Both the position numbers and the translations under genes were made by a program. Shown here one piece after another: positions 42,246 through 62,393 of a stretch of DNA of 64,000 nucleotides. Origin of the DNA: an uncultured Lentimicrobiaceae bacterium (lineage in GTDB: Bacteria > Bacteroidota > Bacteroidia > Bacteroidales > UBA4417). The notes beneath the pieces are model-generated. The model was not told the DNA's origin and made no database searches. It worked only from the letters and a program-made list of their open reading frames with translations. The stretch is taken from contig CAZJCG010000001.1 in the NCBI GenBank assembly GCA_964544545.1, positions 38,073 to 102,072 on the forward strand. The letters are read 5' to 3'. Each line of letters opens with the position of its first letter. The first letter of the stretch is position 1.

Positions 42246-42292
42246 GCCTGACCCTGCACACACCGTACAGGGAGTATATCCATTCATTCCCT

Positions 42293-43354: not shown

Positions 43355-43366
43355 TCATTCGAAACC

Positions 43367-46481: not shown

Positions 46482-47366
46482 TTAATTATTCCGGATGACC
46501 GCCTTATCTGAATAGATGGTCTTATTCTCCTTTGACAATGCTACCATGGTATCGAACAATTCCTGAGAGTGTGCAACAAAGAAACGATTCCCTCTGATTC
46601 TGAAGTTTTCACAAACAGACTTGTTCACATATTTATTCATGAAAGCTGTTATGTCATTATTCTTTATCTGCGGATGCGCTACCAGCGTTTTGACAATTTT
46701 TACGGAACCGTCCGGCATTTTCACTTTTGCATCATATACCTTATCTAACCTCGTTTTTATCGGGAACTTGCTTTTCAGGACATCTTCCGGGCAATGAACA
46801 AAAGAAATGAAGTTGGTATCTACGCCAATCCCGATTATTATTCCCTTATACTTCATTATTTTATAATAGGGACTTGATTCATCGCAGGGATATATGGATT
46901 CCCCGTGCCCGCCGACAATATCACCGGCATTTCGTCCGATGGCCACAATCGAATTGATCGGATGTATACTTCTTACTGCAGTGGGATATCTTCTGGCAAT
47001 TTCTGAAAGCAGGCCTAACACCGAAGGTGATCGCTTTACATCAAAAACAAGGTCTTTCGCAAGATAATCCTCTGCCCTGGATGTGATATGCCAGGCAGGA
47101 AACACCAATGTACCGCTATCTCCGACACTTTCGAGCAGGATTTCGAACAACCGGTAAACAGAAAACTGAATGTTTAAAGCATCTATGGAGCTATGAATAA
47201 ATAATACAGATCCTTCGCGAACCCCTATCCGGTCGTGGAGAATGTCCCTGAAATCCTGTTCTGATAATGGCTTGTATATCTTTTTTAAAATCCGCCTGTA
47301 CACTGTTCTTAATGAAATGAAAACGTCGACAGGCAGAATCTGGAAGATTAATTTTTTTATCCCCAT
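46482..47366 (-). CDS. AAC(3)-family N-acyltransferase-like protein
   Basis: SVLFIHSSIDAL....LLESVGDSGTLVFPAW matches the N-terminal signature of aminoglycoside 3-N-acetyltransferase-fold proteins. Last gene of a tightly packed five-gene operon. Confidence 0.6.
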   Translation of the reverse strand: MGIKKLIFQILPVDVFISLRTVYRRILKKIYKPLSEQDFRDILHDRIGVREGSVLFIHSSIDALNIQFSVYRLFEILLESVGDSGTLVFPAWHITSRAEDYLAKDLVFDVKRSPSVLGLLSEIARRYPTAVRSIHPINSIVAIGRNAGDIVGGHGESIYPCDESSPYYKIMKYKGIIIGIGVDTNFISFVHCPEDVLKSKFPIKTRLDKVYDAKVKMPDGSVKIVKTLVAHPQIKNNDITAFMNKYVNKSVCENFRIRGNRFFVAHSQELFDTMVALSKENKTIYSDKAVIRNN

Positions 47367-47367
47367 A

Positions 47368-48417: not shown

Positions 48418-48665
48418 TACAGAGTGGTGTCGTTGGTTTTCTTTTCAACCAGGCTGATCATATCGCCCACCGTAGCAATGCCTGCAAGATCTTTAAATCC
48501 AAATTCAATTGAAAAATGGCTTTCAATGGCGGCGATCAGCCTGACATGATTTAATGAATCCCATCCTTCTACTGTCAGGGGAGAATCAGAGGACTTAAGT
48601 TTAAGATTAGGTCGTTCAAGAGTATCAGCAAAAATTCTGTTTATCTCAGATAAAATATTTTCCAT
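48417..48665 (-). CDS. acyl/aminoacyl carrier protein
   Basis: About 82 aa with the phosphopantetheine attachment motif GWDSLNHVRLI. ATG at 48665 preferred over TTG at 48671. Confidence 0.8.
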   Translation of the reverse strand: MENILSEINRIFADTLERPNLKLKSSDSPLTVEGWDSLNHVRLIAAIESHFSIEFGFKDLAGIATVGDMISLVEKKTNDTTL

Positions 48666-48667
48666 GT

Positions 48668-49333
48668 TCAAGCTATTGATTTCTGCATTTTGATCCGGGT
48701 TAAGCCCGGCAGGTATTTCAGAACTTCAGTGTTTTCAGTGGACCTTTCCTCAACAATTGTAAATCCGAGTTTTGTCTGACTTAAAACAGCAGCCTGATTT
48801 TGTTTAAAAAGCTGCACCTGAGCTTTGCTGATGGCCGGATATTTCATTTTTGCCGAGCTGATAAGGGCATCCGTTAATAAACCCACAATACCTCTCCCCC
48901 TGTATCCTTCCCTTACATAGGTGGTTTCCAGTTGAAGGGTCATGTGGTCCCTTTTTATGCCGACTTCATCCACTACCGAAGCTATCGAGTGATAATGTTC
49001 AATTTGCCTTTTGTCAAGGAATGCCTTGAAGGCACTCATTTTTAACAACCCCGACGGCATACCTCCGATTCCTTCAATCCACCCGGTATATGCAGCAACA
49101 GGATTTCCGCCAAGTTCGGCAATTTTAAAATTTCTAAAACTAAACTCAAAATCAGGAATATCTTCTTTGAATATTTTTCTCATCAGCGAAGCAAACTCAT
49201 TTTCCGTGATGTCAAATATGGCGCAATAGCTTACAATATTCCCATTCCCCTTTTCAGCATTTATGATTGCTTCAATAAGGAAATCTGAATCCTTTACGGT
49301 TGCATCCCTGATTACAAATTCACTGGTCATCAT
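48668..49333 (-). CDS. GNAT family acyltransferase
   Basis: Acyl-CoA-binding-type motif REGYRGRGIVGLL. About 221 aa. ATG at 49333. Confidence 0.7.
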   Translation of the reverse strand: MMTSEFVIRDATVKDSDFLIEAIINAEKGNGNIVSYCAIFDITENEFASLMRKIFKEDIPDFEFSFRNFKIAELGGNPVAAYTGWIEGIGGMPSGLLKMSAFKAFLDKRQIEHYHSIASVVDEVGIKRDHMTLQLETTYVREGYRGRGIVGLLTDALISSAKMKYPAISKAQVQLFKQNQAAVLSQTKLGFTIVEERSTENTEVLKYLPGLTRIKMQKSIA

Positions 49334-49339
49334 TTTCAA

Positions 49340-50857
49340 CTAAAGCATTTGCTTATCCATAGCCAACAAGGCCTTCCTGTCAATTTTCCCGTTGAGATTG
49401 TACGGCAGGCTATCTATAAAAATAAATCGTTTCGGAAGCATATATTCAGGAATTCTGGCCCTGAGCAGTTCTGTGATAACAGGTCCCTCATAATGAACTT
49501 CTGCAACCAGAAACAACAGTATCTGCAGCTCTTCTGATTCCCCGGTTGCAACGGCAACAGCATCTTTGATCCCGGCAATCCGGTTGGCAGCATCTTCTAT
49601 TTCGCCGAGTTCAATTCGGTAGCCACTGATTTTAACCTGTGTATCATTTCTCCCTAAATAGAAATAGTCGCGCTCCTGATCGACCAAACAGATATCGCCG
49701 GTACGGTAAAAAGTTGATTTGTTGTAATTGATGAATGATTGCTTATTCCGGTTCTCATCATTCAGGTAACCCGAAGTCAACTGCCTGCCCTGAATGCAAA
49801 GCTCTCCTTCCGGATTATTGTCGATGGTTAACTTATCATCACGCATCAATGCAAAGCCGGTCCCAAGGAAGGGTTTCCCTATACAAACCACTCCGTTAAC
49901 ATCTTTAATATCACTTTTCGGACAACGGTAATATGAACAGAAGATCGTTGCTTCGGTTGGTCCGTAAACGTTAAGTATGTCAGCATTTGGCACACATTGC
50001 TGCCAGTTGCTCACCAGTTTGGTCCGTAAGGCTTCACCACAAAACAACCAGTACCGCACATCGGGGAGCCGGATCTTTTTAAAATAAGGTTCCAGATAAC
50101 TGACAAAAGAGGGAACGGTGAGTGTATGCGTTATGGCCTTCTCTTCAATTACGCTTATGGCAGCTGTAAATTTAAACGGGACCCGTGGTAAGGTGTAAAC
50201 ACATGCACCTTTCAGCAACGGGATAAGATAGGAAAATACCGAAAGATCGAAAGTGAGATCGAATACCTGGAGGAACCGGTCTTCCTGATCAATCCTGATA
50301 CCCATCCGATCGATATTCTGGACAAACGCCTGCAGATTCTCTGTAGTGATAGGCACACCCTTAGGAACCCCGGTTGTGCCTGAGGTAAATAGAATATATG
50401 CCGGATTATCGGTTAATCCGACAACAGCATCTGTTGTTAACTCCTTTTCAACCGGATCGGCAAGTAGCTTGTCACCATGTTTCTCTAAAAATTCCCGGTG
50501 CAGCATACCGGCATCCGAACAATAGATTGAACCTAAGCTTAATGCATTGATAATATGACTGTTCCGTTCGTCCGGGTGGGATGGCTCAATAGGAATGTAA
50601 GTGATACCGCTAAGTAAACAGGCAACAATAGCTGAATATGTATCAAAATCGTTGTTGGCAATTATTCCCAATGATTCAATCCTGGTGTTTTGATTCCGGA
50701 ATAAGGACTGGAACAGGGCCACCCGCTTAAGCAGCTGATCATAGGTAAAGCAGGCATCATTAATACAGAATGCATTCCTGTGAGCATGGGTTTTTAAGGA
50801 ATTAAGTAAATCCTGCTGTAATACTCCTTTCCCCTCAGAAATGCTTTTACTGACCAT
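49340..50857 (-). CDS. DltA-like stand-alone adenylation enzyme (ANL superfamily)
   Basis: Adenylation core motifs FTSGTTGVPKG, FDLSV, NVYGPTEAT, YRTGD, GRNDTQVKISGYRIELGEIE, NGKIDRK. The 505-aa size and motif spacing match D-alanine-carrier-protein-ligase-type enzymes. Confidence 0.85.
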   Translation of the reverse strand: MVSKSISEGKGVLQQDLLNSLKTHAHRNAFCINDACFTYDQLLKRVALFQSLFRNQNTRIESLGIIANNDFDTYSAIVACLLSGITYIPIEPSHPDERNSHIINALSLGSIYCSDAGMLHREFLEKHGDKLLADPVEKELTTDAVVGLTDNPAYILFTSGTTGVPKGVPITTENLQAFVQNIDRMGIRIDQEDRFLQVFDLTFDLSVFSYLIPLLKGACVYTLPRVPFKFTAAISVIEEKAITHTLTVPSFVSYLEPYFKKIRLPDVRYWLFCGEALRTKLVSNWQQCVPNADILNVYGPTEATIFCSYYRCPKSDIKDVNGVVCIGKPFLGTGFALMRDDKLTIDNNPEGELCIQGRQLTSGYLNDENRNKQSFINYNKSTFYRTGDICLVDQERDYFYLGRNDTQVKISGYRIELGEIEDAANRIAGIKDAVAVATGESEELQILLFLVAEVHYEGPVITELLRARIPEYMLPKRFIFIDSLPYNLNGKIDRKALLAMDKQML

Positions 50858-51211
50858 CTATAACTAATGGATAAAAATGCCTTTGGGATTGACCCGGGCG
50901 TTTAAATATTGACATTGTAAAATTAAGACAATTTATACAGCATCTTCATGATACTGCACCAAAGGACTGAAGGCATTAAGTACAGCTTCGGAAGGAGCCG
51001 TTGGTCCGGAGCGCCTTCGTTCATTTAAATGTTGTTGCCTTATATTTCCTCCGGGTCTCAATTGTTTGATATTTATAAATCACTGTGAAAAGGCACGTAT
51101 GCCATCAGGCAGGGCTTCACAAAGAAACCAACAGGATCAAAGAAGAAAGGTATTGAACCAGCTTATGAAAGCCTCTGAATATTGGACGCAATGTGATTGT
51201 AGCATATCTGA

Positions 51212-51919
51212 CTACTTTCCCATGGCTTTCTTTTTCAGATCGCCCGGCATCTTTTCGATTGCGTACCGCAATGCCGTCCGTGGCATGATGGATTTATGCT
51301 GCATTACATATTCAAATATCCTTTCTTGGTTCGCTTCAGCGGCAGCCTTTAACATCCATCCGTATCCTTTTTGCACAAGATCATCTTTGTCCAACAGTAA
51401 GATATCAGTAATTTCTAAAATGTCATCCAGGAATTTGCCTTTCCGCGCCGGTATGATCAACGTAACGGCAGATGCCCTGCGAACCCATCTGTTTTCCGAT
51501 GTTGCGAAGGCTTTCAGTTTTGAAACAGCATCGGGATACATCTCGATAAACGTCCCTACTGAATGGTTGCACAGCGTATCACACGATGCCCAGTTGTTCA
51601 CATAACTGTTGATCCATTTTTCAAACAACAGAAAATCACCGGGTTCATACTGCTGATGTATGGCATAGGACCAGTTGCAGGCAATAAACGACTCCTCCAG
51701 GTATCCGGACTGCCATAGCGTTTCACATAAGTCAAATACTTCTGTTCTGGATTTAAAATCAATACGACTAAAAATATCTTTACCGATCCTGTTTACTGTC
51801 GGAACTTTAACGCCATAGAATCTGATCTTCTCTTTGAAAAAATGCTGACTGGTCTGCAGAGTCTTTTCATCAATGTTGTTACTGAGTTCATTTCTGACTT
51901 GTTCGATGATATTCTTCAT
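51212..51919 (-). CDS. DNA alkylation repair protein (AlkD-like HEAT-repeat family)
   Basis: 235 aa, all-helical. The N-terminal pattern (KTLQTSQHFFKEKIRFYGVKVPTVNRIGKD) and WVRRASAV segment are typical of the DNA alkylation repair enzyme family. Confidence 0.75.
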   Translation of the reverse strand: MKNIIEQVRNELSNNIDEKTLQTSQHFFKEKIRFYGVKVPTVNRIGKDIFSRIDFKSRTEVFDLCETLWQSGYLEESFIACNWSYAIHQQYEPGDFLLFEKWINSYVNNWASCDTLCNHSVGTFIEMYPDAVSKLKAFATSENRWVRRASAVTLIIPARKGKFLDDILEITDILLLDKDDLVQKGYGWMLKAAAEANQERIFEYVMQHKSIMPRTALRYAIEKMPGDLKKKAMGK

Positions 51920-52145
51920 GATTAGTTCGGTTTTTTTTGACGGCTTGTATGCCTGAGTGAACGGTCCCTGCCTTGGTGCCGGAACAAAGCCCTGGCAGCT
52001 AAGCCCATCTTATGTCCGATGGATACTACTTTGTCTTTTAAAAGTGTTGATTATTAGATATTAATCTTGCGCAATTATTGACAGTTAATATGTCAATCCT
52101 GAATTCATCAAAAATCAAATAAACTATTCTATAATTTCCCCGTAC

Positions 52146-52248
52146 TATACTGAATCTTAACAGGTTTGCGAAGCAGAGCTGTTTAGATTCAGTTATGCTG
52201 AGCATGTCCCCCAAATAAATTTATGCAAACCTGTTCAGCCGCAGTATA
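52146..52248. mobile_element. MITE/REPIN-like inverted-repeat element, copy 2 (103 bp)
   Basis: Terminal inverted repeats tatactgaatcttaacaggtttg (52146-52168) and caaacctgttcagccgcagtata (52226-52248) match at 19 of 23 positions. Its right end supplies the last 4 codons and the stop of the truncated toxin ORF. Confidence 0.65.
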
Positions 52249-52438
52249 ATTGTCTTATTTTCTGATTGTTGAATTCAGGAACAATAGATCCGGATTGGGG
52301 GAATTCCTCCAAAATATCAACTGATTCAAATAGTTCGGTAACAGTAATTTCAGCATATCTGATCGAATCTTTAGCAATGTATTCACCTATTGCATCAAGA
52401 TCAAGAATTGCAGAATCAGTCCAGACTACTTTAACCAT
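52235..52438 (-). pseudogene. 3'-truncated RelE/ParE-family toxin gene
   Basis: MVKVVWTDSAILDLDAIGEYIAKDS...FPQSGSIVPEFNNQKIRQ matches the N-terminal two thirds of ParE/RelE toxins. The reading frame then runs into the repeat element (LYCG-stop). The C-terminal beta-strands of about 30 aa are missing. Confidence 0.65.
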
Positions 52439-52608
52439 TTGTTGAGCTTTTGTCTTGCTTCTACTTTTGAGTTTATTCTTCCTTCAGCAGAATCAACCAA
52501 ACCTTTTTGAACTTTCTCAACAAATATTAAGTGATCAATTACCTGATCAATAGTCAGATTTTCTGGTAATTTATTCAGAGTATCAATTAGTTGTGTCTTA
52601 GTGATCAT
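52426..52608 (-). CDS. putative antitoxin of the ParE/RelE pair
   Basis: 60 aa, ATG start. Overlaps the toxin start by 13 nt. The C-terminal EKVQKGLVDSAEGRINSKVEARQKLNKW resembles antitoxins paired with this toxin family. Confidence 0.6.
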   Translation of the reverse strand: MITKTQLIDTLNKLPENLTIDQVIDHLIFVEKVQKGLVDSAEGRINSKVEARQKLNKWLK

Positions 52609-52666
52609 TACAAATGTATTTTGATAAAGTTACAAAATAATAGCTCATCATTCAAGTATGGAATAT

Positions 52667-52747
52667 TATACTGAGCAAGTCCCGAAAAACAAATTTCGAC
52701 CCGAAGGGTCCCTCCGAAGGAGAGCAAACCTGTTCAGCCGGAGTATT
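52667..52747. mobile_element. MITE/REPIN-like element, partial copy 3 (right half)
   Basis: tatactgagcaagtcccgaaaaacaaatttcg matches the interior of copy 1. cgacccgaagggtccctccgaaggagag is the inverted counterpart of the copy-1 inner arm. Ends with caaacctgttcagccggagtat. Confidence 0.5.
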
Positions 52748-52891
52748 ACCTTCTTACCTCCATCGGGTATAACGGTTCGCACCTAGGCGCCGGGGCTTGC
52801 ATTGTTGGCCCGTGCATGGGGGGCATACTTTGGAGCTTATGCGCCGTTGGCAACAGGGCGTTGTTCTTTGTTCGGTGCTTATTTGATTGCT

Positions 52892-54223
52892 TTACTCCTT
52901 GATTATTTTATTAATGAATACATGCCCTGAGGAGTCTACTATTTTCAGTAAATAGATCCCAGGATTTATCAATGGTGTTAAAATAATATTATTTAATCCA
53001 ATACTTATATTTTCTTTATAATTATAGCATACAGTCCCATCCATAGTCATAATATTAATTAAAACATCCTGAGAGTTTGAACTATTCAATGAAAACCTGA
53101 ATTGATCTTTAAATGGATTTGGTGTGACTTTAATCTGATTTATTGTTTGATTAAAGTCGATTAAGGAGGTATTCGGAAAGTTAGAAATTTTCAGAATAAA
53201 GCTGTAAGCGAACGCATAACCTGTTGAATCGAAAAATTGGAAATCATGAATCCAATCGGTTAGGTCATCTGTTGCATAAGAAGAATCATAATTAATGAAA
53301 GTAGCTCCTCCATCAACACTTTTATAGATATTGGCAGGCCATCCACTTAACCATATAGTGGAATCATTCTCATAATAGATAGCGTCAGGTAGTAGTTCCC
53401 ATTTATTTTTATAAAAGTGAGAAATTGTGTCGAAATTATTTTCTGTTAACATTACTATGGCATAGTGCCAGTCTCCACCAGTAGTACCACCATGTAAACT
53501 GTCGGCAAAATGTATGTTGTATAAATCTCCTGTCAGCGGTTTACATTCAATCCAATGAGCTCCACCGTCTATTGTTTTTAAAACAAATCCTTGATCCAGG
53601 GACATCGAGCAAGTTGCCCAGCCATATTGTTCATTTATAAATATAATCTTGTTTGGTTTATAATTATTTGATGATGCTGAATCGATGAATTCAGGTGTCA
53701 GTGTTTTTACCCAACTAATACCTCCATCCTCTGTTTTGAATATTGATTTGAACCCGCCACAAAAACCGACATCTTTATTGAAAAAGTAAAAACCTGAACT
53801 GCCATAGAAGGGCCCTCCGGGGGTGAACATTACAGAATCAGTCAGATCAACCCAATTATGACCACCATCATTTGTTGACCAAAAATAAAGATCAGAATTT
53901 GTATAATTTTCAATCAATGCAAAGCCGTTCAACGAATCAACCAGTTGTATATTATCAGCACGATACCCAAGAGGGAAATCATAAACTTTATTGAATGAGA
54001 TAGCTCCATCCGTCGTCTGAATCAAATCATATTGGATGTCTGGCCAAATTCCTGAACGAGAACAGATCCAACCTTCCTTATCATTAATAAAGGAAGCCGA
54101 TATAAAATAATCGTATCCTGCTGGATTGACCTTTTCCCATGTTTGTGCTCTTGTCAACTTTGGAGAGCATATAAAAAGTAAACTCAGTAGGGTAAATTCC
54201 AATATGAAAATTTGTCTATTCAT
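52892..54223 (-). CDS. T9SS C-terminal-sorting-domain protein with a BNR/Asp-box beta-propeller
   Basis: Signal peptide. Asp-box motifs TNDGGHNW, TEDGGISW, TIDGGAHW, SVDGGATF. C-terminal VTPNPFKDQFRFSL...LLKIVDSSGHVFINKIIKE sorting domain. Very AT-rich. Confidence 0.7.
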   Translation of the reverse strand: MNRQIFILEFTLLSLLFICSPKLTRAQTWEKVNPAGYDYFISASFINDKEGWICSRSGIWPDIQYDLIQTTDGAISFNKVYDFPLGYRADNIQLVDSLNGFALIENYTNSDLYFWSTNDGGHNWVDLTDSVMFTPGGPFYGSSGFYFFNKDVGFCGGFKSIFKTEDGGISWVKTLTPEFIDSASSNNYKPNKIIFINEQYGWATCSMSLDQGFVLKTIDGGAHWIECKPLTGDLYNIHFADSLHGGTTGGDWHYAIVMLTENNFDTISHFYKNKWELLPDAIYYENDSTIWLSGWPANIYKSVDGGATFINYDSSYATDDLTDWIHDFQFFDSTGYAFAYSFILKISNFPNTSLIDFNQTINQIKVTPNPFKDQFRFSLNSSNSQDVLINIMTMDGTVCYNYKENISIGLNNIILTPLINPGIYLLKIVDSSGHVFINKIIKE

Positions 54224-54334: not shown

Positions 54335-55012
54335 CTACCGGTACAACCGCTTCCCCTCTTCGGTCATCACGGAGTTCATGATGATCCCTGCCGACTGAAA
54401 GTAGGCTTCGATCTGCTGTGCCAATCCGCTCTCGTAATCCGCCGGCTCCAGTATCAGATAGCCCTCGCCCGACTCCTGGTCATGGAACGTCCTGGCCGCC
54501 CTCCTTATGTTTTTACTCTTCTTTTCGAAGTTATCCCGTGTGAGAAAATAAAGCTGGTTTTCCTCTTCATCCTGCCCGTCGCATAATTCATATCCGATCT
54601 GCTGCGCATAACCTATCGCCGCAAAATTGTCGCGCATTACATGAATGTAGGAAATATGCCAGTCGAGATAGTAGAAACCCACCTCCAGCAATACCAGCGA
54701 AGTTAAAATCGGAATAAAAGTACTGATATAGTCCTGGTCCCAGAAAAACAATCCCGACTCACTGGTCCGGGCCTTCCAGTCCATATTCTTATCGTTGATA
54801 AGTGCGACTTTTTTACCCTGATACTCAACTATATAATAGAAGTTCTCAAAATTATCGATACGCTCGAACCATTTCACCTGCATCCCGGGGGTGATCTCTT
54901 CCCGGAAATTCATCACCCGCCGGATCTCTTCCGAGTTCCTTTTCTGACGCACCAGCTCAATATCGTCCCTCGTCAGACGCCTCAAGGTCAGCCCGTATTT
55001 TCGAACAATCAT
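54335..55012 (-). CDS. GNAT-like N-acyltransferase
   Basis: 225 aa. N-terminal LRRLTRDDIELVRQKRN and overall layout resemble GNAT acetyltransferases found in glycan loci. ATGA overlap with the upstream GT2 gene. Confidence 0.55.
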   Translation of the reverse strand: MIVRKYGLTLRRLTRDDIELVRQKRNSEEIRRVMNFREEITPGMQVKWFERIDNFENFYYIVEYQGKKVALINDKNMDWKARTSESGLFFWDQDYISTFIPILTSLVLLEVGFYYLDWHISYIHVMRDNFAAIGYAQQIGYELCDGQDEEENQLYFLTRDNFEKKSKNIRRAARTFHDQESGEGYLILEPADYESGLAQQIEAYFQSAGIIMNSVMTEEGKRLYR

Positions 55013-55932
55013 TTAAGAATCTTTTTTATGGAATAAGGAGGCTTCTTGTTCTGGACCTTGTAAATCCTGGTAAGGTATTCACCGATCATGCCCAGGCATA
55101 ACATGATGATGCTGGTGGAAAACAGTATGGCAACGATCAGCGAGGTATACCCAAGGGGAACATCATGGATGAGCTTGTTGATGATGAACCGGATCGCAAG
55201 GATGAAGCTGAGCACCGACAGGATAAAACCGCCATAGGTCATGATGCGCAGCGGGACTGCCGTATAGAAGACCACAATATTGAACGACATCTTCATCAGT
55301 TTCCAGGTGGAATACCCCGAATGACTGACGCTCCGTTTATGATGCGTCACCTCCACAAACGAGATATTACCTGTGTACCATAACAGCAGTTCATCAATGT
55401 ACATGAAATGCTGAGTGTGTTTGAGAATACTTTTTGCCAGTTCGCGGGTCATCAGTCTGAAAGAGGAACCCTGTCCGGGGGATTGCAATAGCAGGCGGGA
55501 TGATTTTTTTATAAAGAAACTGCCAAAATTCCGGATCCAGGAATGTTGCTTCTTACCGTAGTAGCCATATACGAGATCGGCATCCGTTGTGTTGAAGGAG
55601 TCGATGAGTTTCGTGATTTCTTCCGGCAGAACCTGGAGATCATCATCGATGGTGATAATGGTTTCTCCCTGTGAATGTTCCAGTCCGCAAAATACGGCAT
55701 TATGCTGACCGAAATTCTTCGAAAGCTTGATAGCAACGACCTCTTCGGGATTTAGTTCCTTAAGGTGAATCAGAATCTCCCAGCTCTTATCCCTGCTGAA
55801 ATCATCCACAAAAACCATCTCGAACGTTTTTCCCAGCGAGGCGAAAACAGCCTTTGTCCTGGAAAAAAGTTCTTCCAGCGTTCCCTCGCTGTTGTAAACA
55901 GGAACAACAATGCTGTAATCAGGTGAAGTCAA
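55009..55932 (-). CDS. family 2 glycosyltransferase, polyprenyl-phosphate glycosyltransferase type (ArnC/GtrB-like)
   Basis: YSIVVPVYN, VFVDDFSRD and TIDDDLQ (DxD) motifs, plus two C-terminal TM helices. 307 aa. Only a TTG start is available. Confidence 0.85.
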   Translation of the reverse strand: MTSPDYSIVVPVYNSEGTLEELFSRTKAVFASLGKTFEMVFVDDFSRDKSWEILIHLKELNPEEVVAIKLSKNFGQHNAVFCGLEHSQGETIITIDDDLQVLPEEITKLIDSFNTTDADLVYGYYGKKQHSWIRNFGSFFIKKSSRLLLQSPGQGSSFRLMTRELAKSILKHTQHFMYIDELLLWYTGNISFVEVTHHKRSVSHSGYSTWKLMKMSFNIVVFYTAVPLRIMTYGGFILSVLSFILAIRFIINKLIHDVPLGYTSLIVAILFSTSIIMLCLGMIGEYLTRIYKVQNKKPPYSIKKILK

Positions 55933-56232
55933 TTTCTCTGTGTTTAATAATTAGTTTACTAACTCTTAATGAGGGAAAACGATACTACAAAGGTTGAAAT
56001 TGCAGGGGGATAAATCAAGTCCTCCAGTTGAAAAGCCGTTGAAATTGTCCGAATGCTTACTGCCATCATTGAGAATTTTTAGGCATTCCGAACCGGCCGG
56101 AAATTTTTCCCTGATCTCTTCTTCTTTCCGGCGAGTTTCCAACCCGTCAGCATCCAAATCCCGAATCCTGTTTCTGAGATCCGGCAGGTAATTTACGGGG
56201 ATTCTCTGTTGTCAAAGGATCGTAGATTATAC

Positions 56233-56967
56233 TTATCCTCCTCCCAGTTGCAGGTTTGTGCCTGTGATCCACTTTGCTGCGTCCGACAAGAGGTAAACTA
56301 TTGCGTTAGCCACATCGTCCGGTTCCCCGAAACCCAGCGGCATCATCTTTTCAAATTTTTCAAGCACCTCATTCGAAATGGTCTCGGCGGCGCCTTCCAC
56401 CATCGGGGTCTTCACAAACGAGGGTGACACGCAGTTCGACCGGATGCCCTTTGGAGCCAGTTCCAGGGCCAGCACCTTGGAATATGCCTCTATAGCCGCT
56501 TTCGTGCTGCAATACAAGGCTCCTCCGAAATAGGGATAGCGGGTGGCAATCGACGACAGGAACACTACCGAAGCGTGGCTCTTTAGTTTTTTCTTTTTCA
56601 GGATGGCTGCCGTTGTGAGAACAGGTGCAGTGTAATTCGTTGCGAAGAAAGGAACAATATCATCCTCCCGTAGGAATTTTACAGGCAGGTGCCCGGTGAT
56701 CCCGGCAGAATGAACGATACCATCCAGACCGGGGAGCAATTCGACGAGGCGGTCACGGTCTTCCTGAAGTGTAAGATCGGCGGGAATCATTATATGTCCC
56801 AGCTGATCGAGTGATTCAAGGGTTTGCTGTAAACGTTGTTCGTTGCGCCCGGTAATGACCAGGGTGCCTCCGGCCTTGCTTACAGCAATAGCGGTTTGTT
56901 TTCCGATTCCGGAAGAAGCTCCTGTCACCAGGATCGTCTTGCCATGCAACAGAAAAGTACTTTCCAC
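56233..56967 (-). CDS. short-chain dehydrogenase/reductase (FabG-like ketoreductase)
   Basis: TGASSGIG cofactor motif and the YCSTK catalytic YxxxK. GTG start. Confidence 0.85.
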   Translation of the reverse strand: MESTFLLHGKTILVTGASSGIGKQTAIAVSKAGGTLVITGRNEQRLQQTLESLDQLGHIMIPADLTLQEDRDRLVELLPGLDGIVHSAGITGHLPVKFLREDDIVPFFATNYTAPVLTTAAILKKKKLKSHASVVFLSSIATRYPYFGGALYCSTKAAIEAYSKVLALELAPKGIRSNCVSPSFVKTPMVEGAAETISNEVLEKFEKMMPLGFGEPDDVANAIVYLLSDAAKWITGTNLQLGGG

Positions 56968-56988
56968 GGAAGAAATTTTAGAAATGGA

Positions 56989-58044
56989 TTAATAGTCGAC
57001 CAAAGGCGGGCAAACCACCCTGTCGACCTCCATGGCGACGCTGCCCCACGACAATCCGACTCCGAATCCGCAGGTCAGCAGCTTTACCTTTTCCCTGCTG
57101 ATCCGTTCCCCGAGTTCCGTTACAATGGTCAGCGGAATGGAGGCAGAACTGGTATTGCCGAACTTATGAATGGAATAGGGAACTTTTTCCTTATCCAGCT
57201 TGAGCATCTTACGAATGGTCTCGTTCATCAGCAGGTTAGCCTGATGAAATACGAAATGGTCGAAATCGGCGGTCGTCACCGACAATTCCCCCATCAGTTT
57301 TTTAATGTTCGGCACCACCTCACGCAGGGCGAAGTTGAACACCTCTATGCCGTTCAGGGCTATCTGCAGGCGGTTCCGGTAGATGCCATCGCCGTATTTC
57401 CGGGTGTCGAACGACTTTTTGCTGATGAAGTTCCGCATGCCGCCATCCGGTATGATGATCGCATCGTAGCCGGCGCCGTCCGATTCAAGGTTAAAATGGA
57501 TGGGACTGGCAGATTCATCCAGCTCGAAGGCAGTGGCGGTCGCGGCATCTCCGAATAGCGGAAAAGTGCTTTTATCGCGATAGGAGGCCGTAAGGGTCGA
57601 AATATCTCCCACCAGCAACAGTCCTTTCCTGATCTTGCCTGCATACATCATGCTGGCAATAGCCGAAATGCCGTACACCCATCCCGAACAACCCAGACCG
57701 ATATCATAGGCTACACAACTGTGCGGCAGCCCCAGCCGGTCCTGGATAATACCCGAGGTGGAAGGTATGATGTAATCGCGCGACTGGCTGATAAAGATCA
57801 GCAACTGAATCTCATTCTTATCCCATCCCAGTTCCCGGATAAGTCTTTCGGCAGCAGCAACGCAGAGGTCTGAGGTGGCGGTACCGGGTTCGGCAACCCT
57901 GCGTTTCTCAACTCCCACAGTCTTGACGAGCATTTCCCGATCTTTCCTGGAAATCCACTTGTAATCGAGATTGGAGTACTCTTTCCTGGGGGCGGCAGCG
58001 GCAATGCCGGCCATCCGGACGTGGGGAACGGAGAAAACAGCCAT
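56989..58044 (-). CDS. ketoacyl-ACP synthase III (FabH-like)
   Basis: Cys-His-Asn triad contexts GLGCSGWVYG, FVFHQAN and FGNTSSASIP. 351 aa. Starts 4 nt after the ACP gene. Confidence 0.85.
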   Translation of the reverse strand: MAVFSVPHVRMAGIAAAAPRKEYSNLDYKWISRKDREMLVKTVGVEKRRVAEPGTATSDLCVAAAERLIRELGWDKNEIQLLIFISQSRDYIIPSTSGIIQDRLGLPHSCVAYDIGLGCSGWVYGISAIASMMYAGKIRKGLLLVGDISTLTASYRDKSTFPLFGDAATATAFELDESASPIHFNLESDGAGYDAIIIPDGGMRNFISKKSFDTRKYGDGIYRNRLQIALNGIEVFNFALREVVPNIKKLMGELSVTTADFDHFVFHQANLLMNETIRKMLKLDKEKVPYSIHKFGNTSSASIPLTIVTELGERISREKVKLLTCGFGVGLSWGSVAMEVDRVVCPPLVDY

Positions 58045-58048
58045 GGGC

Positions 58049-58279
58049 TTACACCTTTGATTTGACTATTTCAAACAGGTCGGTAACAGTCTTTGATTTC
58101 TGTATGTCTTCAGCATTGATGGCGGCACCGTATTCGGTCTTAACCATTGCAATAAGGATCAGGGCATTGATACTATTCCAATCGAATACTTCACGAAAAT
58201 TGGTTTCAGGTTTCAGTTTCCCGGGTTCAATGTCATCAAATTCAGTCTCGATATTCTTGATGAAATCTTCAAGTGTCAT
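58049..58279 (-). CDS. acyl carrier protein (variant attachment motif)
   Basis: About 76 aa from the ATG at 58279 (MTLEDFIKNIE...). Four-helix ACP-like layout. The attachment site reads FDWNSINALI (Ser retained, Asp replaced by Asn). Confidence 0.7.
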   Translation of the reverse strand: MTLEDFIKNIETEFDDIEPGKLKPETNFREVFDWNSINALILIAMVKTEYGAAINAEDIQKSKTVTDLFEIVKSKV

Positions 58280-58311
58280 GGTAACCAGTTTATTAGTACA
58301 AGGAAGAATCG

Positions 58312-58319
58312 CAAATGTA
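58312..58319 (-). promoter_or_regulatory. candidate -7 promoter element for the ACP-KASIII-SDR operon
   Basis: The minus strand reads tacatttg (TAnnTTTG) 33 nt upstream of the ATG at 58279. A TTTG lies at 58344-58347 (minus strand), 24 nt further upstream. Confidence 0.3.
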
Positions 58320-58416
58320 AACAAATTTGGTAGAATGACTTTTCAAAATGAGAATAATCCTGAGGCAACCTCCTCGATTCATTTTTCTATCTTTAGCGGC
58401 TGGAAAGGAAAGGATC

Positions 58417-59796
58417 ATGCCTGAACGAAAAAGAAAACTGTTGCTGATCAACCCGATAAGTCCGGAGAACCGCGGATTTGTCATCAACCAGGGTCAGCGT
58501 TATCCCCCACTCGGGCTTGGGATCGTTGCAGCGCTTACCCCGGATCACTGGGAGGTTGAACTTATCGATGAAGTATTCACCCCTTACCAGTACCGGGATA
58601 ATCTCATTGAAGCGGATCTGGTTGGCTTCGGAGCATTCACCTTTTCGGTAAACAGGGCCTATGAAATAGCGGCAGCCTACCGGAAAAGGGGCATACCTAC
58701 CGTGTTGGGCGGCATTCATGCCAGTATGGTCCCGGAAGAAGCCGGACAATACGTGGATACCATCGTGGTAGGTGAGGCAGAAACCGTCTGGCCAAAACTG
58801 ATCGCCGACTTTGAGGCAGGCCGGATGAACGACCTGTATGAGGGAGGATTGGCAGACCCCGCAACCATACCTCAACCCCGCTTCGACCTCTTTCATCCGG
58901 GTTACTGGTTTGCCTCCATCCAGACTACCCGCGGTTGTCCAATGAACTGCACCTTCTGCTCCGTAACCACATTCAACGGAAAACAACACCGGCTGAGACC
59001 GGTGAACGATGTGCTGGATGAAATCGAGAAGTGCGGAAGGAAGATGATCTTCTTTGTCGATGATAACATCATCGGCTACGGCAGGGAAGCCCGCGACCAT
59101 GCACTGGCCATCTTCCGTGGCATGAAAGAGCGGAAACTGAACAAGGTATGGTTCTCGCAGGCTTCACTCAATTTCGCCGATGATCCGGAAATACTGAAAG
59201 CAGCCAGCGATGCCGGATGCAGACTGATCCTCCTCGGGATCGAGTCGGAGCATGCCGAACAACTGAAACTGGCCAATAAAAAGCTGAACCTGAAGAAGCT
59301 GGACAGTTATAAGGACATATACCGTAAAATCCACAGGCACAGCATTTCGGTACTGGGAACTTTCATCTTCGGACTTGAAGGCGACACTCCGCAGAATATC
59401 ACTGAACGGGCTGCCTATATGGTGCACTCGGGCGTTGATGCGTACCAGGCATCCATCCTCACTCCGTTACCAGGAACATCATTATATGATTCGTTCATGG
59501 CATCCGGAAGGATAACAGACCGTAACTATCCGCAGGATTGGGACAAGTACCAGTTTACCAGAGTAGTCTTTCATCCGGGATCCATGCGGCACGACGAACT
59601 TACCGAAGAGGTCAGGCGGGCATGGCACAATATTTATCAACAACATACGATGTACCGGAAGGCTATCAGGACCTTCTGGGCATTGCGAAGATGGAACCTC
59701 CGCCAGTGGTTCACACGGGGCGTGGAGGCAACCATGTTCGCCTATTATACCAACTGGCACTATAAGAATGTCGTGATCGGAAAGAAAGAGAAATAG
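58417..59796 (+). CDS. B12-binding-domain radical SAM protein (class B), paralog 1
   Basis: ATG at 58417 gives MPERKRKLLLINP. N-terminal Rossmann-like cobalamin-domain pattern (YPPLGLGIVAALTP...ADLVGFGAFT). CxxxCxxC cluster TTRGCPMNCTFC. Confidence 0.85.
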   Translation: MPERKRKLLLINPISPENRGFVINQGQRYPPLGLGIVAALTPDHWEVELIDEVFTPYQYRDNLIEADLVGFGAFTFSVNRAYEIAAAYRKRGIPTVLGGIHASMVPEEAGQYVDTIVVGEAETVWPKLIADFEAGRMNDLYEGGLADPATIPQPRFDLFHPGYWFASIQTTRGCPMNCTFCSVTTFNGKQHRLRPVNDVLDEIEKCGRKMIFFVDDNIIGYGREARDHALAIFRGMKERKLNKVWFSQASLNFADDPEILKAASDAGCRLILLGIESEHAEQLKLANKKLNLKKLDSYKDIYRKIHRHSISVLGTFIFGLEGDTPQNITERAAYMVHSGVDAYQASILTPLPGTSLYDSFMASGRITDRNYPQDWDKYQFTRVVFHPGSMRHDELTEEVRRAWHNIYQQHTMYRKAIRTFWALRRWNLRQWFTRGVEATMFAYYTNWHYKNVVIGKKEK

Positions 59797-59822
59797 CGCC
59801 TGAGACCTGAAAATTATTGTCG

Positions 59823-61208
59823 ATGAACCGAAAGCCAAAGCTGTTGTTGGTCAATCCTGCCAGAGATGAACGAAGAGGATTCCTGATGAACCCTTTCTCC
59901 AAAATCCCTCCGATCAACCTGGCCATCATCGCAGCGTTGACACCTGAACACTGGGATATTAGGATAGCAGATGAGAATTTTGCGCATCACTGCGCAGAGG
60001 AAGCAGACCTGGTCGGGCTGACGGCGTATACATCAAACGCTCCCAGGGCTTACAGGATCGCACAGGAATACCGTGAACGCGGCATACGGACGGTAATGGG
60101 CGGTATCCATGCTTCCATGATGCCGGACGAAGCATCGAAATATGTAGATTCGGTTGTGATCGGCGAAGCTGAAAGCCTCTGGCAGCAAGTGATCAGTGAC
60201 TTTGAGAATAACAGGTTGCAGCCGTTGTACCATGCGCCCAGGGATAAGGTGGTCCGGCAGCCGATGCCCCGTTACGATCTTCTCCATCCCGGATACCTGT
60301 TCGGTTCGGTCCAGACCAGCCGGGGATGCCCCTTTGACTGCAACTTCTGTACGGTAACATCCTTTAATGGCCGGCAGTTCCGTATGCGCCCGGTGGAAGA
60401 TGTCCTCGAAGAGATCGCTGCCATCGACAAACGCTTTCTCCTGTTCGTGGATGATAACCTGGTTGGCTACAGCAAGGAGAGTTACGAACGAGCCATCGAA
60501 CTCTTCAGCAAAATGGCCGAGCGGGGCATCCGTAAGGACTGGATGGGGCAGGTTTCGATGAATGTTGCCGATGATCCGCGCGTATTGAAAGCAGCAGCAA
60601 AAAGCGGATGCAGGAATTTCTTCATCGGCTTCGAAACCGATGATGATGTCCAGCTTCAGCAAATGGACAAGAAATTGAACTTTAAAAGGGGCGTAAATAA
60701 ATACGAAGAACTCATCCGGAAAATCCACCGCCACGGGATCAGCGTTCTTGGTGCCTTTATGTTCGGAAATGAGAACGATACCAGGGAAAGCATGCTGCGG
60801 CGGGTAAACTACATAGTGAATTCAGGGATTGATATTTGCCAGATGACTATCCTGACGCCAATGCCGGGAACACGCCTGTATGATAAATGGTTTGCCGAAG
60901 GAAGGATTGAAAAAGCAAATTACCCGGAGGACTGGAAACATTACGATGCCCTGAGTCCCGTGGTTAAGTATCCCGGAATGAGCAGCTCTGAGATGAAAAC
61001 AACCATGGAGGAGATGTTTGTCCGCATGTATAACCGGAAGACCATCCGTAAAATGTTCATCCGATCCCTGTTCAATACCCGTAGCCTGACAACAGCCTAC
61101 TGGGCGTATGTGTCCAACTATAACTATTACCGGATGGTACTGGAGGACAGGATCATGGCCGGTGATCCGGATTACATTTTCTGGAAAAAGAACTGCAGGA
61201 CCTTTTAA
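59823..61208 (+). CDS. B12-binding-domain radical SAM protein (class B), paralog 2
   Basis: ATG at 59823 gives MNRKPKLLLVNP. IPPINLAIIAALTP...ADLVGLTAYT. TSRGCPFDCNFC. Collinear with paralog 1 along its whole length. Confidence 0.85.
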   Translation: MNRKPKLLLVNPARDERRGFLMNPFSKIPPINLAIIAALTPEHWDIRIADENFAHHCAEEADLVGLTAYTSNAPRAYRIAQEYRERGIRTVMGGIHASMMPDEASKYVDSVVIGEAESLWQQVISDFENNRLQPLYHAPRDKVVRQPMPRYDLLHPGYLFGSVQTSRGCPFDCNFCTVTSFNGRQFRMRPVEDVLEEIAAIDKRFLLFVDDNLVGYSKESYERAIELFSKMAERGIRKDWMGQVSMNVADDPRVLKAAAKSGCRNFFIGFETDDDVQLQQMDKKLNFKRGVNKYEELIRKIHRHGISVLGAFMFGNENDTRESMLRRVNYIVNSGIDICQMTILTPMPGTRLYDKWFAEGRIEKANYPEDWKHYDALSPVVKYPGMSSSEMKTTMEEMFVRMYNRKTIRKMFIRSLFNTRSLTTAYWAYVSNYNYYRMVLEDRIMAGDPDYIFWKKNCRTF

Positions 61209-61265
61209 TTCCGTTGAGAACCTTTTGTCTGTTTTCCGTATTTTCGTCCGCCAACAAGCACTTCA

Positions 61266-62393
61266 ATGAAAGGCAGAATCCTGTATCTCGATAACATTCG
61301 CATCTTCCTGATCTCTTACGTGATCGCCGGGCATGTATCGGTCGCCTACGGAGCGCTGGGAGGCGGCAACTGGTATTACATCGAACCGGCACAGGGCTTT
61401 GCAACCAAGGCAGCCTTCTACCTGTTCGACATGCTGGCCTATTCGTTCCTGATGGCCATGTTCATCTTCATTTCGGGTTATTTTACCCCGGCATCCCTGG
61501 AACGCAAAGGGAGCCTGGGATTCCTGAAAGACCGCATCTTCAGGCTGTTCATCCCCTTTGTATTGTATTATTTTCTTCTGGGACCGGTTACCCGCTATAT
61601 CAGCATGCTGGCCAAAGGCTACGAAGGCAGCATTTTCGAATTCTGGAAAGGGATGTATCAATCGGGTATTTACGGCTATACGGGGGTGATGTGGTTCGTA
61701 GAACTGATCCTTGCCTTTTCATTCCTTTATGCCGCTTTCAGGTACGTTTTCCCCGGAGGATTATGGAAGAGAACCGATGATCGTTTCCCTTCAAATCTTT
61801 CGATCGCCGTTTTCATCCTGATGGTAGGATTTGCAGGATTTATAGCCCGGCTTGCCTTCCCCATGGGAGGAGGATACCTGGGAGCAAGGCCCCTGGCATC
61901 CCTGGTACTCTTTGGAACAGCCTTTTTCCTGGGAACAACTGCCTGGCGTTATCAATGGCTGGATAAACTCAGCGACAAGACAGCATGGCAATGGTTTTGG
62001 GTGGCATTGGTCGTGATGGTGGCCCCTCTGGTGATCTTCCTGTTGTTCCGGAAAAGCATCAGCATCGCCGGGATCAAAGGATCAGGCACTGCAGGTTCTT
62101 TAATCTACTCCTACTGGGAAGTGATCAAATGTGTCGGCACCGGAATGCTGTCGATCGTGATCTTCCGCCGCTATTTCGACAGGCAGGGCAAAATGGCCGC
62201 AGCCATGGGAAGAAGCGCCTTTGCCGCCTATGTGCTTCATCCGATGATCTGCGTGACATTCATGTACCTGCTTTCGGGAGTACAATTGCATGGTCTGATA
62301 AAGTTCGCTCTGGTGGCGCCATTATCCATTGTCTGCACATTCGCAGTCTCCTGGCTTTTTGTGAAGATACCGGGAGTAAATAAAATATTCTGA
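61266..62393 (+). CDS. acyltransferase family 3 (OafA/OatA-like) integral membrane O-acyltransferase
   Basis: N-terminal ILYLDNIRIFLISYVIAGHV motif and about 10 hydrophobic segments. 375 aa. Confidence 0.85.
   Translation: MKGRILYLDNIRIFLISYVIAGHVSVAYGALGGGNWYYIEPAQGFATKAAFYLFDMLAYSFLMAMFIFISGYFTPASLERKGSLGFLKDRIFRLFIPFVLYYFLLGPVTRYISMLAKGYEGSIFEFWKGMYQSGIYGYTGVMWFVELILAFSFLYAAFRYVFPGGLWKRTDDRFPSNLSIAVFILMVGFAGFIARLAFPMGGGYLGARPLASLVLFGTAFFLGTTAWRYQWLDKLSDKTAWQWFWVALVVMVAPLVIFLLFRKSISIAGIKGSGTAGSLIYSYWEVIKCVGTGMLSIVIFRRYFDRQGKMAAAMGRSAFAAYVLHPMICVTFMYLLSGVQLHGLIKFALVAPLSIVCTFAVSWLFVKIPGVNKIF

Follow-up and report, generated by a model that had tools for sequence, protein, structure and literature searches.

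We analysed a stretch of 64,000 nucleotides (hereafter, the window) from an uncultured Lentimicrobiaceae bacterium (contig CAZJCG010000001.1, positions 38,073 to 102,072), in which two rows of genes diverge from a short intergenic region. The minus strand carries genes for an acyl carrier protein (ACP), a 3-ketoacyl-ACP synthase III (KAS III), a short-chain dehydrogenase/reductase (SDR), a family 2 glycosyltransferase (GT2) and a GNAT acyltransferase. The plus strand carries two paralogous radical S-adenosylmethionine enzymes with a B12-binding domain (rSAM1 and rSAM2), followed by a membrane acyltransferase of the acyltransferase-3 family (AT3). These eight genes had been called in the original prediction, made from the letters alone: all of them are intact open reading frames (ORFs) at the positions and on the strands then given, and Pfam agrees with the proposed domains for each (Table 1). 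Similarly, the gap between the SDR and GT2 genes, put at about 300 nt, and the divergent region, put at about 140 nt, measured 300 and 137 nt. An identical copy of the locus is present in the JGI metagenome 3300020813 (contig of 302 kb) and in the NCBI assembly GCA_030154545.1.

The eight genes stand, but the boundaries first drawn around them were too narrow. Two sulfotransferase genes and a Wzx flippase gene (42176-45735) belong to the locus too, and in relatives the unit also includes a fatty acyl-AMP ligase (FAAL), alone or fused to an ACP, a WecE-type transaminase and a TMTC-like GT-C glycosyltransferase. On the other side, the end of the cluster was placed at 62393 because the genes for LeuRS, FtsX, UppP and TruB come after AT3. 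Thus delimited, the whole locus covers about 20 kb (42176-62393), and we read it tentatively, with a little less than even confidence, as the core of a surface-glycan decoration locus.

Table 1. Features of the locus, with positions in the window
Feature	Position	Strand	Description
Sulfotransferase 1	42176-43354	+	Sulfotransfer_3 family, Pfam PF13469 5.3e-35
Wzx/MOP-type flippase	43367-44671	+	Pfam Polysacc_synt_3, Polysacc_synt, MurJ
Sulfotransferase 2, paralog of sulfotransferase 1	44668-45735	+	Pfam PF13469 1.8e-32
Lower-GC insert splitting the cluster	46482-54223	-	GC 0.35-0.43 vs ~0.50 in flanks
GNAT N-acyltransferase, predicted to act on a nucleotide-linked amino sugar	54335-55012	-	225 aa, Pfam Acetyltransf_3
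GT2 polyprenyl-phosphate glycosyltransferase (GtrB/ArnC type)	55009-55932	-	307 aa, Pfam PF00535 (Glycos_transf_2) 8e-27
SDR, probable 3-ketoacyl-ACP reductase	56233-56967	-	244 aa, Pfam adh_short
KAS III (FabH-like)	56989-58044	-	351 aa, Pfam ACP_syn_III + ACP_syn_III_C
ACP	58049-58279	-	76 aa from ATG, Pfam PP-binding
Divergent intergenic region	58280-58416	.	137 nt; promoters of both operons presumed, from position only
rSAM1, B12-binding-domain radical SAM	58417-59796	+	459 aa, Pfam B12-binding + Radical_SAM
rSAM2, old paralog of rSAM1	59823-61208	+	461 aa, Pfam B12-binding + Radical_SAM
AT3 membrane acyltransferase, putative accessory O-acylation step	61266-62393	+	375 aa, Pfam Acyl_transf_3 1.4e-27

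Then, we evaluated whether the same arrangement occurs in other genomes. One genome per species was scanned, which returned at least 599 pattern matches, 583 of them confirmed among the matches listed, and the best 80 loci were kept (labelled L005 and so on; L005, from a Bacteroidales metagenome-assembled genome (MAG), is the nearest named relative). By tblastn and ORF clustering, the ACP-KASIII-SDR(-GT2-GNAT) block was found facing one to five rSAM paralogs in at least 17 independent Bacteroidota MAG loci; the gene adjacency is therefore kept in related genomes and is no chance neighbourhood. Other recurrent neighbours of the rSAMs are an adenylation enzyme (21 loci; either a 684-aa FAAL-ACP fusion or a FAAL with a FadD11-like ligase), a GT-C-like membrane protein with tetratricopeptide (TPR) repeats and a weak TMTC DUF1736 match (10 loci), both sulfotransferases (9-10 loci), a Wzx-type flippase (7-8 loci) and a WecE-type transaminase (5 loci).

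The number of rSAM genes varies widely: one copy in 63 loci, two in 15 (including four copies of this same genome), three in nine, four in one and five in one. A second sample of nine loci was drawn from the KAS III or GNAT side and is not biased towards rSAMs; here the rSAM was absent in six of the nine. More precisely, L101, L104, L105 and L106 hold a larger cluster without any rSAM, and L102 and L086/L087 have rSAMs. L104 and L105 are close relatives (KAS III identity 78-80%). Among close relatives as a whole (KAS III identity 78-84%) the number of rSAMs ranges from 0 to 2, and over all loci from 0 to 5. Since the core locus is found without them, the rSAMs are an optional tailoring module, gained and lost. 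A scan of metagenomes for the KAS III returned five close relatives only, all on short contigs.

The genes for KAS III, ACP, ketoreductase and N-acyltransferase are contiguous on one strand (54335-58279), with GT2 between the GNAT and SDR genes. The ACP scores 25.8 bits against Pfam PP-binding (cut-off 20.8) and is 92% identical to its L005 ortholog. The KAS III, 84% identical to that of L005, reaches 226.7 bits with the NCBIfam KAS III subfamily model, just under the cut-off of 249. Its Cys-His-Asn triad, already described as intact, aligns with C112, H244 and N274 of Escherichia coli FabH. The SDR matches Pfam adh_short_C2 (2.4e-46) and the KR domain, and FabG models at 1e-36 to 1e-38, below their cut-offs. 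This SDR accompanies KAS III and ACP even where no rSAM is present (L085, L103, L101 and L104-L106), and it is therefore the partner of KAS III and not of the rSAMs. In L085 and L103 (10001-12907) the operon is reduced to ACP-KASIII-SDR-GT2, with no GNAT, rSAM, sulfotransferase or Wzx gene. The pathway proposed below does not account for this minimal form, which has no acyltransferase in sight.

On the sugar side, the GNAT gene start overlaps GT2 by 4 nt. The GNAT scores 26.7 bits with Acetyltransf_3 (cut-off 25.4) and matches PseH weakly (7.8e-10; 39 bits with the PseH model, cut-off 93). Its AlphaFold (AF2) model has a predicted local distance difference test score (pLDDT) of 94, and the top Foldseek matches are PseH (4RI1, E = 3.7e-12) and FdhC (5KTA/5KTC, template modelling score (TM) 0.62/0.77), the latter a transferase of 3-hydroxybutanoyl to a dTDP-amino-dideoxyhexose, solved with the product 3-[(R)-3-hydroxybutanoylamino]-3,6-dideoxygalactose. 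According to this model, the fold is that of nucleotide-sugar N-acyltransferases; the donor of the GNAT would be a CoA or an ACP thioester. PseH (Helicobacter pylori) and FdhC (Acinetobacter nosocomialis) share just 15-17% identity with the GNAT, which has 225 aa against about 180, with about 45 additional C-terminal residues. With 107 members, all of about 225 aa, the GNAT family is small, and it is specific to this cluster. The sugar may be supplied by the WecE-type transaminase of relatives: that of L005 scores 542 bits with the dTDP-4-amino-4,6-dideoxygalactose transaminase model (cut-off 375), and the gene is present in L005, L050, L053, L067, L068, L101, L102, L104 and L105.

The assignment of GT2 to the polyprenyl-phosphate type held over the full length of the protein. 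In the PDB sequence search it aligned with GtrB sll0501 (5EKP) at 3e-47 (residues 5-303 of 307) and with ArnC at 1e-41 (residues 6-306), C-terminal membrane helices included. The ArnC model NF007986 is matched over residues 6-306 (7.4e-50) with 169.7 bits and its cut-off of 529 is not reached. Judging from these alignments, GT2 is a GtrB/ArnC-type polyprenyl-phosphate enzyme and no ArnC ortholog. We also considered a Nod-factor-like logic and rejected it: GT2 is not of the NodC type (NodC 4.9e-6 against ArnC 7e-50), and a 349-aa protein encoded in the insert described below has no deacetylase match. In addition, the TMTC-like GT-C, a TPR-repeat membrane protein whose match to Pfam DUF1736 (26.8 bits) lies just below the cut-off of 27, is found in ten related loci plus L101 and L104.

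From the domains, folds and conserved gene order, and from the optional presence of the rSAMs, we infer a route whose substrates, step order, cobalamin use, methylation and final acceptor are all predicted. The predicted product is an amino sugar that carries an N-(3-hydroxyacyl) group and is made on polyprenyl phosphate; the rSAMs would act on the acyl chain while it is bound to its carrier, probably by C-methylating it. We favour this tentatively, giving it not quite an even chance. The original prediction is supported in part, being right about the type of pathway and about the uncharacterised status of the two rSAMs. ACP, KAS III and SDR would build a 3-hydroxyacyl thioester on a dedicated carrier protein, and rSAM1 and rSAM2 would alter unactivated carbons of the carrier-bound chain, the likeliest reaction being a cobalamin-dependent C-methylation with one step per paralog. 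Then, the PseH/FdhC-like GNAT would acylate the amino group of a nucleotide-activated amino-dideoxyhexose, possibly made by the dTDP-4-amino-4,6-dideoxyhexose transaminase that is encoded beside the cluster in relatives and not in the window. The GtrB/ArnC-type GT2 would load the acylated sugar onto undecaprenyl phosphate, the Wzx-like protein would flip it, and in relatives an acceptor outside the cytoplasm may then receive it from the TMTC-like GT-C. Sulfate could come from the sulfotransferases (cytoplasmic, dependent on 3'-phosphoadenosine-5'-phosphosulfate (PAPS)), and O-acyl groups from the membrane-bound AT3. The variable number of rSAMs fits a tailoring role.

We then investigated the rSAMs, which carry the distinctive part of this proposal. 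They had been estimated by eye to be roughly half identical; they share 46% identity over 453 aligned residues (E = 1e-154), and both have the N-terminal K-LLL-NP motif and the cluster motif T[TS]RGCPxxCxFC. Radical_SAM (PF04055, cut-off 29.5) is matched with 56.2 bits by rSAM1 and 61.0 by rSAM2, and B12-binding (PF02310, cut-off 32.1) with 50.4 and 52.7 bits. In an alignment of 65 family members that includes both proteins, the CxxxCxxC core (C174, C178, C181) is invariant, and rSAM2 retains all family-invariant residues. Neither protein reached a curated NCBIfam cut-off. The best match is HpnJ (TIGR03471), with 106.6 and 109.9 bits against 577.6 and over the C-terminal half only. HpnR gives 79 bits against 650, TIGR04072 (the ladderane-cluster rSAM) 75-86 against 360 and the AprD4 family model 57-66 against 500; in general, the equivalogs for BchE, HpnR, PhpK, AprD4, MgmA, Tes and the ladderane-cluster rSAM give 17-90 bits against cut-offs of 360-650. 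Coherently with the original prediction, the two rSAMs lie outside any characterised orthologous group. The analogy then drawn with HpnI, HpnJ and HpnK found no specific support.

Among solved structures, the best sequence match is MgmA (9CCB), followed by AprD4 (5.8e-14). The AF2 model of rSAM1 (pLDDT 89.6) gave in Foldseek AprD4 first (TM 0.71-0.72), then MgmA, TsrM, CysS, TokK, MiaB and OxsB, and both domains are covered in the TsrM, TokK, CysS, OxsB and MgmA matches. The crystal structures of CysS and TokK, two B12 rSAM methylases, contain pantetheinylated substrates, in agreement with a carrier-bound substrate for the rSAMs studied here. Both enzymes share the two-domain architecture (E = 1e-15 to 1e-16, TM 0.65-0.69), depend on cobalamin, act on pantetheine-tethered substrates and perform several successive methylations per enzyme. 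Unlike them, the rSAMs of the window are about 200 residues shorter (identity 16-18%), and several paralogs would share the steps that a single iterative enzyme performs there.

The prominence of AprD4 raises the alternative that the rSAMs act on the sugar, either by C-methylation, as GenK, GenD1 and Fom3 do, or by a radical dehydration followed by SDR reduction, as in the AprD4/AprD3 pair of apramycin biosynthesis. The result would be a rarer deoxy or branched amino sugar, acylated and exported afterwards. AprD4 ranks first by structure and second by sequence among PDB entries, both systems combine an rSAM with an SDR in an amino-sugar context, and the locus is sugar-centred, with GT2 and GNAT here and the transaminase in relatives. 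However, the AprD4 family model is matched far below its cut-off, and the SDR, as seen above, goes with KAS III and ACP also where the rSAM is absent. Moreover, the FAAL-ACP is the tightest same-strand partner of the rSAMs, and rSAM arrays are found beside acyl-CoA carboxylase genes and without a sugar gene in range. We consider chemistry on the sugar unlikely, both for the rSAM reaction and for the branched or deoxy sugar that it would yield.

To place the acyl-modifying role in a wider frame, we compared the rSAMs with their homologs. Among 8000 candidates scored, 4703 match the family at E <= 1e-10, and relatives of about 50% identity occur in Anaerolineae, Dehalococcoidia, Pirellulales, Spirochaetota, 'delta proteobacteria', Caldisericales, Bathyarchaeota and Methanophagales. 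The family is thus very widespread and uncharacterised, and it belongs to no curated family. In the phyla other than Bacteroidota the gene is single-copy and the Bacteroidota partner genes are all absent. Instead, the single rSAM has a MarR gene as its immediate neighbour in 23 non-Bacteroidota loci (21 upstream on the same strand, two divergent), and no MarR gene was found beside the rSAMs in Bacteroidota. The spacing between MarR and rSAM genes is often 0-3 nt (e.g., L008:9350-11133; in Anaerolineae, Dehalococcoidia, Spirochaetota and others), and the pair suggests a ligand-responsive two-gene unit.

In a neighbour-joining tree without support values, the Bacteroidota paralogs fall into clades according to gene position: rSAM1 adjoins the cross-phylum single-copy clade (50-55% identity to its members), and rSAM2 groups with the single rSAMs of L061, L081 and L065. 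Because this tree places rSAM1 and rSAM2 in separate clades, the pair corresponds to two old paralog lineages and not to a recent local duplication, as its description as a duplicated pair might have implied. Nor is a pair uncommon, as had been supposed: tandem arrays of two to five genes are common in this rSAM family.

These comparisons bear on a further alternative, namely that the rSAMs have an independent function, as in the MarR-linked single-copy homologs, and are mere neighbours of the glycan locus; they might then modify a common metabolite, a cofactor or a membrane component. rSAM1 stands next to the cross-phylum clade, whose single-copy members have no ACP, KAS III or GT2 neighbours, the core locus lacks rSAMs in six of the nine sampled relatives, and in one archaeal homolog the rSAM is joined to a biotin-protein ligase. 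Against this, many independent Bacteroidota genomes keep the rSAMs in the same place, with ACP on one side and AT3 or FAAL-ACP on the other, the spacing to the FAAL-ACP gene is operon-like, the position-specific clades imply a long co-evolution with the locus, and the Bacteroidota rSAMs have no accompanying MarR gene. Taken together, mere neighbourhood seems very unlikely, and so does any of the independent substrates just named. The archaeal fusion itself is known from a single locus, a Methanophagales MAG (L033:8079-10172, plus strand), where a 697-aa ORF joins the rSAM to the biotin-protein ligase BirA within the gene row BioY, biotin carboxyl carrier protein (BCCP), biotin carboxylase, rSAM-BirA and carboxyltransferase.

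More direct clues to the substrate come from the genes next to the rSAMs. In seven loci, the last rSAM is followed by a same-strand gene of the adenylation family. In five of them, the product is a FAAL-ACP fusion of full length (684-732 aa), and the gaps measure -11, 6, 6, 31 and 44 nt; in L083 a 684-aa adenylation ORF follows after 293 nt, and in L077 a 416-aa product after 50 nt. A FAAL-ACP directly after the rSAM points to a carrier-bound acyl substrate. In two Bacteroidales loci (L029 and L072) the rSAM arrays are divergent from acyl-CoA carboxylase genes, and in four others a cysteate synthase gene comes next on the same strand after two or three tandem rSAMs (L044:9977-15852, L051:10001-14131, L055 and L080; TIGR03844, 480 bits against a cut-off of 325). 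Cysteate synthase is a sulfonolipid precursor enzyme. In general, these contexts lean towards acyl or lipid chemistry over sugar chemistry, and the rSAM family is not tied to one pathway.

The same contexts could indicate a mainly lipid product, namely a sulfated, branched hydroxy-fatty-acyl glycolipid or hydrocarbon with no short acyl decoration. In such a route, the FAAL(-ACP) of relatives would load a long fatty acid, KAS III and SDR would extend it to a long 3-hydroxyacyl-ACP, the rSAMs would add methyl branches or make other C-C changes, and a CurM- or olefin-synthase-like sulfotransferase would sulfate the 3-hydroxyl. CurM and olefin-synthase sulfotransferases act on 3-hydroxyacyl-ACP. 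FAAL or FAAL-ACP is the commonest rSAM neighbour in Bacteroidota (21 loci), the rSAM arrays adjoin acyl-CoA carboxylase and cysteate synthase genes, an alpha/beta hydrolase is encoded in three relatives, and the set of FAAL-ACP, ketosynthase, ketoreductase, ACP and sulfotransferase corresponds to the module order of olefin synthases. The best PDB match of the sulfotransferases is that of CurM (4GBM, 5.9e-17), and the olefin-synthase sulfotransferase 4GOX is matched too (3e-13), but tyrosylprotein sulfotransferases match equally well. Of the olefin synthase/CurM set, the window holds KAS III, SDR and ACP and no thioesterase, and the FAAL-ACP is found just in relatives. The Wzx flippase flanked by the sulfotransferases suits glycan work, the GNAT fold resembles that of sugar N-acyltransferases, GT2 is of the polyprenyl-phosphate type, and the WecE-type transaminase of relatives needs an amino-sugar role. 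For these reasons we regard a mainly lipid product as quite unlikely. An OleABCD/beta-lactone logic was rejected as well: the KAS III matches FabH models, an ACP is present, and the AMP ligases match models of the FAAL or FadD11 type and no Ole model.

Several observations weigh against the acylated and acyl-methylated amino sugar that we favour. Homologs of the transaminase, FAAL and GT-C-like protein were not found in the 64-kb window (tblastn, E <= 1e-5). The FAAL of relatives hints at chains longer than 3-hydroxybutanoyl. In L044, a sulfotransferase and Wzx, divergent from the rSAM array, are the sole further cluster genes within 10 kb, and no KAS III, GT2 or GNAT gene is found in this range. 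The closest solved structure, AprD4, is a diol dehydratase that acts on an aminoglycoside sugar. AprD4 is not known to use cobalamin, and since it has the same two-domain fold, the B12-binding domain is no proof of cobalamin chemistry. Finally, about half of the 4703 homologs, archaeal ones included, are single genes with MarR as their only neighbour; because these have no ACP, KAS III or sugar genes nearby, the ancestral substrate of the family is unlikely to be the acyl-ACP proposed here. Between 1 and 42 kb, the window encodes housekeeping, efflux and peptidase functions unrelated to the locus, and dTDP-sugar, PAPS and cobalamin genes are absent there. Because three genes of the relatives are missing in the window and a foreign-looking insert is present, this copy may be a rewired version of the locus.

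A way to assess the proposed N-acylated amino sugar is to compare the locus with characterised systems. For the use of a FabH/ACP/FabG trio in the N-acylation of an amino sugar, invoked in the original prediction, the viosamine island of Pseudomonas syringae pv. tabaci (vioA, vioS, vioB, vioR, acp, vioM, vioT), which serves flagellin glycosylation, offers a precedent at the gene level (PMC3927599). There, vioA, vioS (KAS III), vioB, vioR (reductase) and acp, a set that includes a transaminase and an N-acyltransferase, give N-(3-hydroxybutanoyl)viosamine, and the product of the island is dTDP-N-(3-hydroxybutanoyl)-2-O-methylviosamine (PMC3927599). Both systems place a dedicated KAS III, ACP and 3-ketoacyl reductase beside an N-acyltransferase, and both have a 4-aminotransferase for a dTDP-4-amino-4,6-dideoxyhexose, here only in relatives of the locus. 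Differently from the island, N-acylation would fall here to a GNAT with the PseH/FdhC fold, a class I methyltransferase is absent, and the sugar apparently goes onto polyprenyl phosphate via GT2, whereas in the island VioT attaches it directly to a protein glycan. Furthermore, the B12-domain rSAMs, sulfotransferases, Wzx and AT3, and in relatives the FAAL and GT-C, are additions.

The second half of the locus resembles the Arn (ArnB, ArnA, ArnC, ArnD, ArnE/F, ArnT) and GtrA/GtrB/GtrC systems of three-component periplasmic glycosylation, in which a cytoplasmic GT2 charges undecaprenyl phosphate with a single sugar, a flippase moves this sugar and a GT-C transfers it on the outside. As in Arn, a 4-amino sugar would be N-acylated before lipid loading, if the transaminase of relatives is taken as its source. 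Unlike in those systems, the flippase here is of the Wzx/MOP type, the GT-C is found only in relatives and is TMTC-like with TPR repeats, and the N-acyl group would come from a dedicated KAS III/ACP/SDR set. B12-domain rSAMs also occur near ACP and fatty-acid-synthesis-like genes, or near lipid-linked-sugar genes, in the anammox candidate ladderane cluster and in the HpnJ, HpnP and HpnR systems (PMC13459092). HpnJ, HpnR and TIGR04072 are the best or near-best NCBIfam matches of the rSAMs, all far below cut-offs, and the FabF, FabZ, phytoene-desaturase-like, HpnI and HpnK partners are absent here; the function of the ladderane rSAM is itself unproven (PMC13459092).

In the literature searched, we found no description of this gene combination as a pathway, as the original prediction had suspected, nor a named function for the rSAM family, and such a family is also missing from a review of 2026 on rSAM enzymes that modify lipids. 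The novelty lies in the combination of known pieces with an optional rSAM array, since each half resembles a known kind (viosamine-type and Arn/Gtr-type, respectively). To the 3-hydroxyacylation and export of a sugar, this array would add enzymes predicted to functionalise inert carbons without oxygen. The family itself is very large, reaches about 50% identity across phyla into archaea and has no assigned function. The Bacteroidales loci, with 0, 1, 2 or more rSAMs beside otherwise the same genes, represent a natural experiment that could reveal the chemistry. If the acyl chain is indeed methylated, branched acyl groups would be reached anaerobically by a new route, and the surface antigens of Bacteroidota from anoxic habitats would gain a new source of diversity.

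A broader idea, which we judge quite improbable, is that the family forms a new class of radical enzymes that alkylate or rebuild unactivated carbons of carrier- or membrane-bound lipid chains. With arrays of up to five genes, Bacteroidales would then shape an acyl group with several branches, carried by a surface sugar. In anoxic sediments, bulk lipids would be the target of the MarR-controlled single orthologs (in Anaerolineae, Dehalococcoidia, Planctomycetota, Spirochaetota, Desulfobacterota-like bacteria, Bathyarchaeia and Methanophagales). If so, these orthologs would be a possible genetic source of methyl-branched lipid biomarkers.

As for the non-coding parts of the locus, the SDR-GT2 gap (55933-56232) is longer than in relatives (300 against 71-140 nt), has no Rfam match and resembles nothing at the other loci. 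It contains a 63-aa ORF (55966-56157) that is not conserved in relatives. As this is the only small ORF and no precursor gene is present, a locus for ribosomally synthesised and post-translationally modified peptides with B12 rSAM methylases was rejected; the partners are FabH, ACP and sugar enzymes instead. The 137-nt divergent region likewise has no Rfam match, and its similarity at the DNA level is limited to copies of the same genome. No cobalamin riboswitch or other RNA element was matched by Rfam across the whole window, and a promoter and terminator scan was uninformative, with fewer sites than in shuffled sequence.

Among the flanking genes, sulfotransferase 1, Wzx and sulfotransferase 2 have orthologs in L005 with 83%, 73% and 66% identity, which abut the GNAT gene directly. 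Sulfotransferase homologs beside GNAT were also found in L053, L054, L061, L068, L078, L081, L101, L102 and L104-L106, and in relatives Wzx is placed between both sulfotransferases. In the window, a lower-GC insert of about 8.7 kb parts these genes from GNAT. It encodes an AAC(3)-like acetyltransferase, the 349-aa protein (with no family, PDB or deacetylase match), a carrier protein, a weak GNAT and a DltA-like adenylation enzyme, and further a DNA_alkylation protein, a ParE-type toxin pair and a BNR protein with a type IX secretion system (T9SS) tail. None of the insert genes was found in any related locus. The five genes from the AAC(3)-like acetyltransferase to the DltA-like enzyme (46482-50857, minus strand) look like a module that loads an amino acid on a carrier and then transfers it. 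On the same strand, the DNA_alkylation repair protein (51212-51919) and the ParE-type toxin of 67 aa with its 60-aa partner (52235-52608) are consistent with mobile or acquired DNA.

At the opposite end, AT3 shows weak matches to the MdoC and NolL models. As a neighbour it was counted in three Bacteroidota loci, plus one distant match (25%) in an Anaerolineales locus, and orthologs with 52-67% identity follow the rSAM in L005, L061, L081 and L089. In L104, AT3 occupies the same divergent position without any rSAM, where the window has rSAM1-rSAM2-AT3. In two further loci (L101:16003-18432 and L102:15193-17628) an MBOAT and an unannotated protein of 286-323 aa replace AT3, which suggests that extracytoplasmic O-acylation modules are interchangeable.

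Finally, many genomes encode proteins with a C-terminal T9SS sorting domain next to or within the cluster: in the window at 40602-41972 and 52892-54223, and further in L061 and L081 (between ACP and rSAM), L104, L105, L106, L085 and L103; in L106, PorV and a C25 peptidase are encoded nearby. These neighbours could be due to chance, such genes being abundant in these bacteria, or the acceptor of the sugar could be a T9SS cargo or its anchor.

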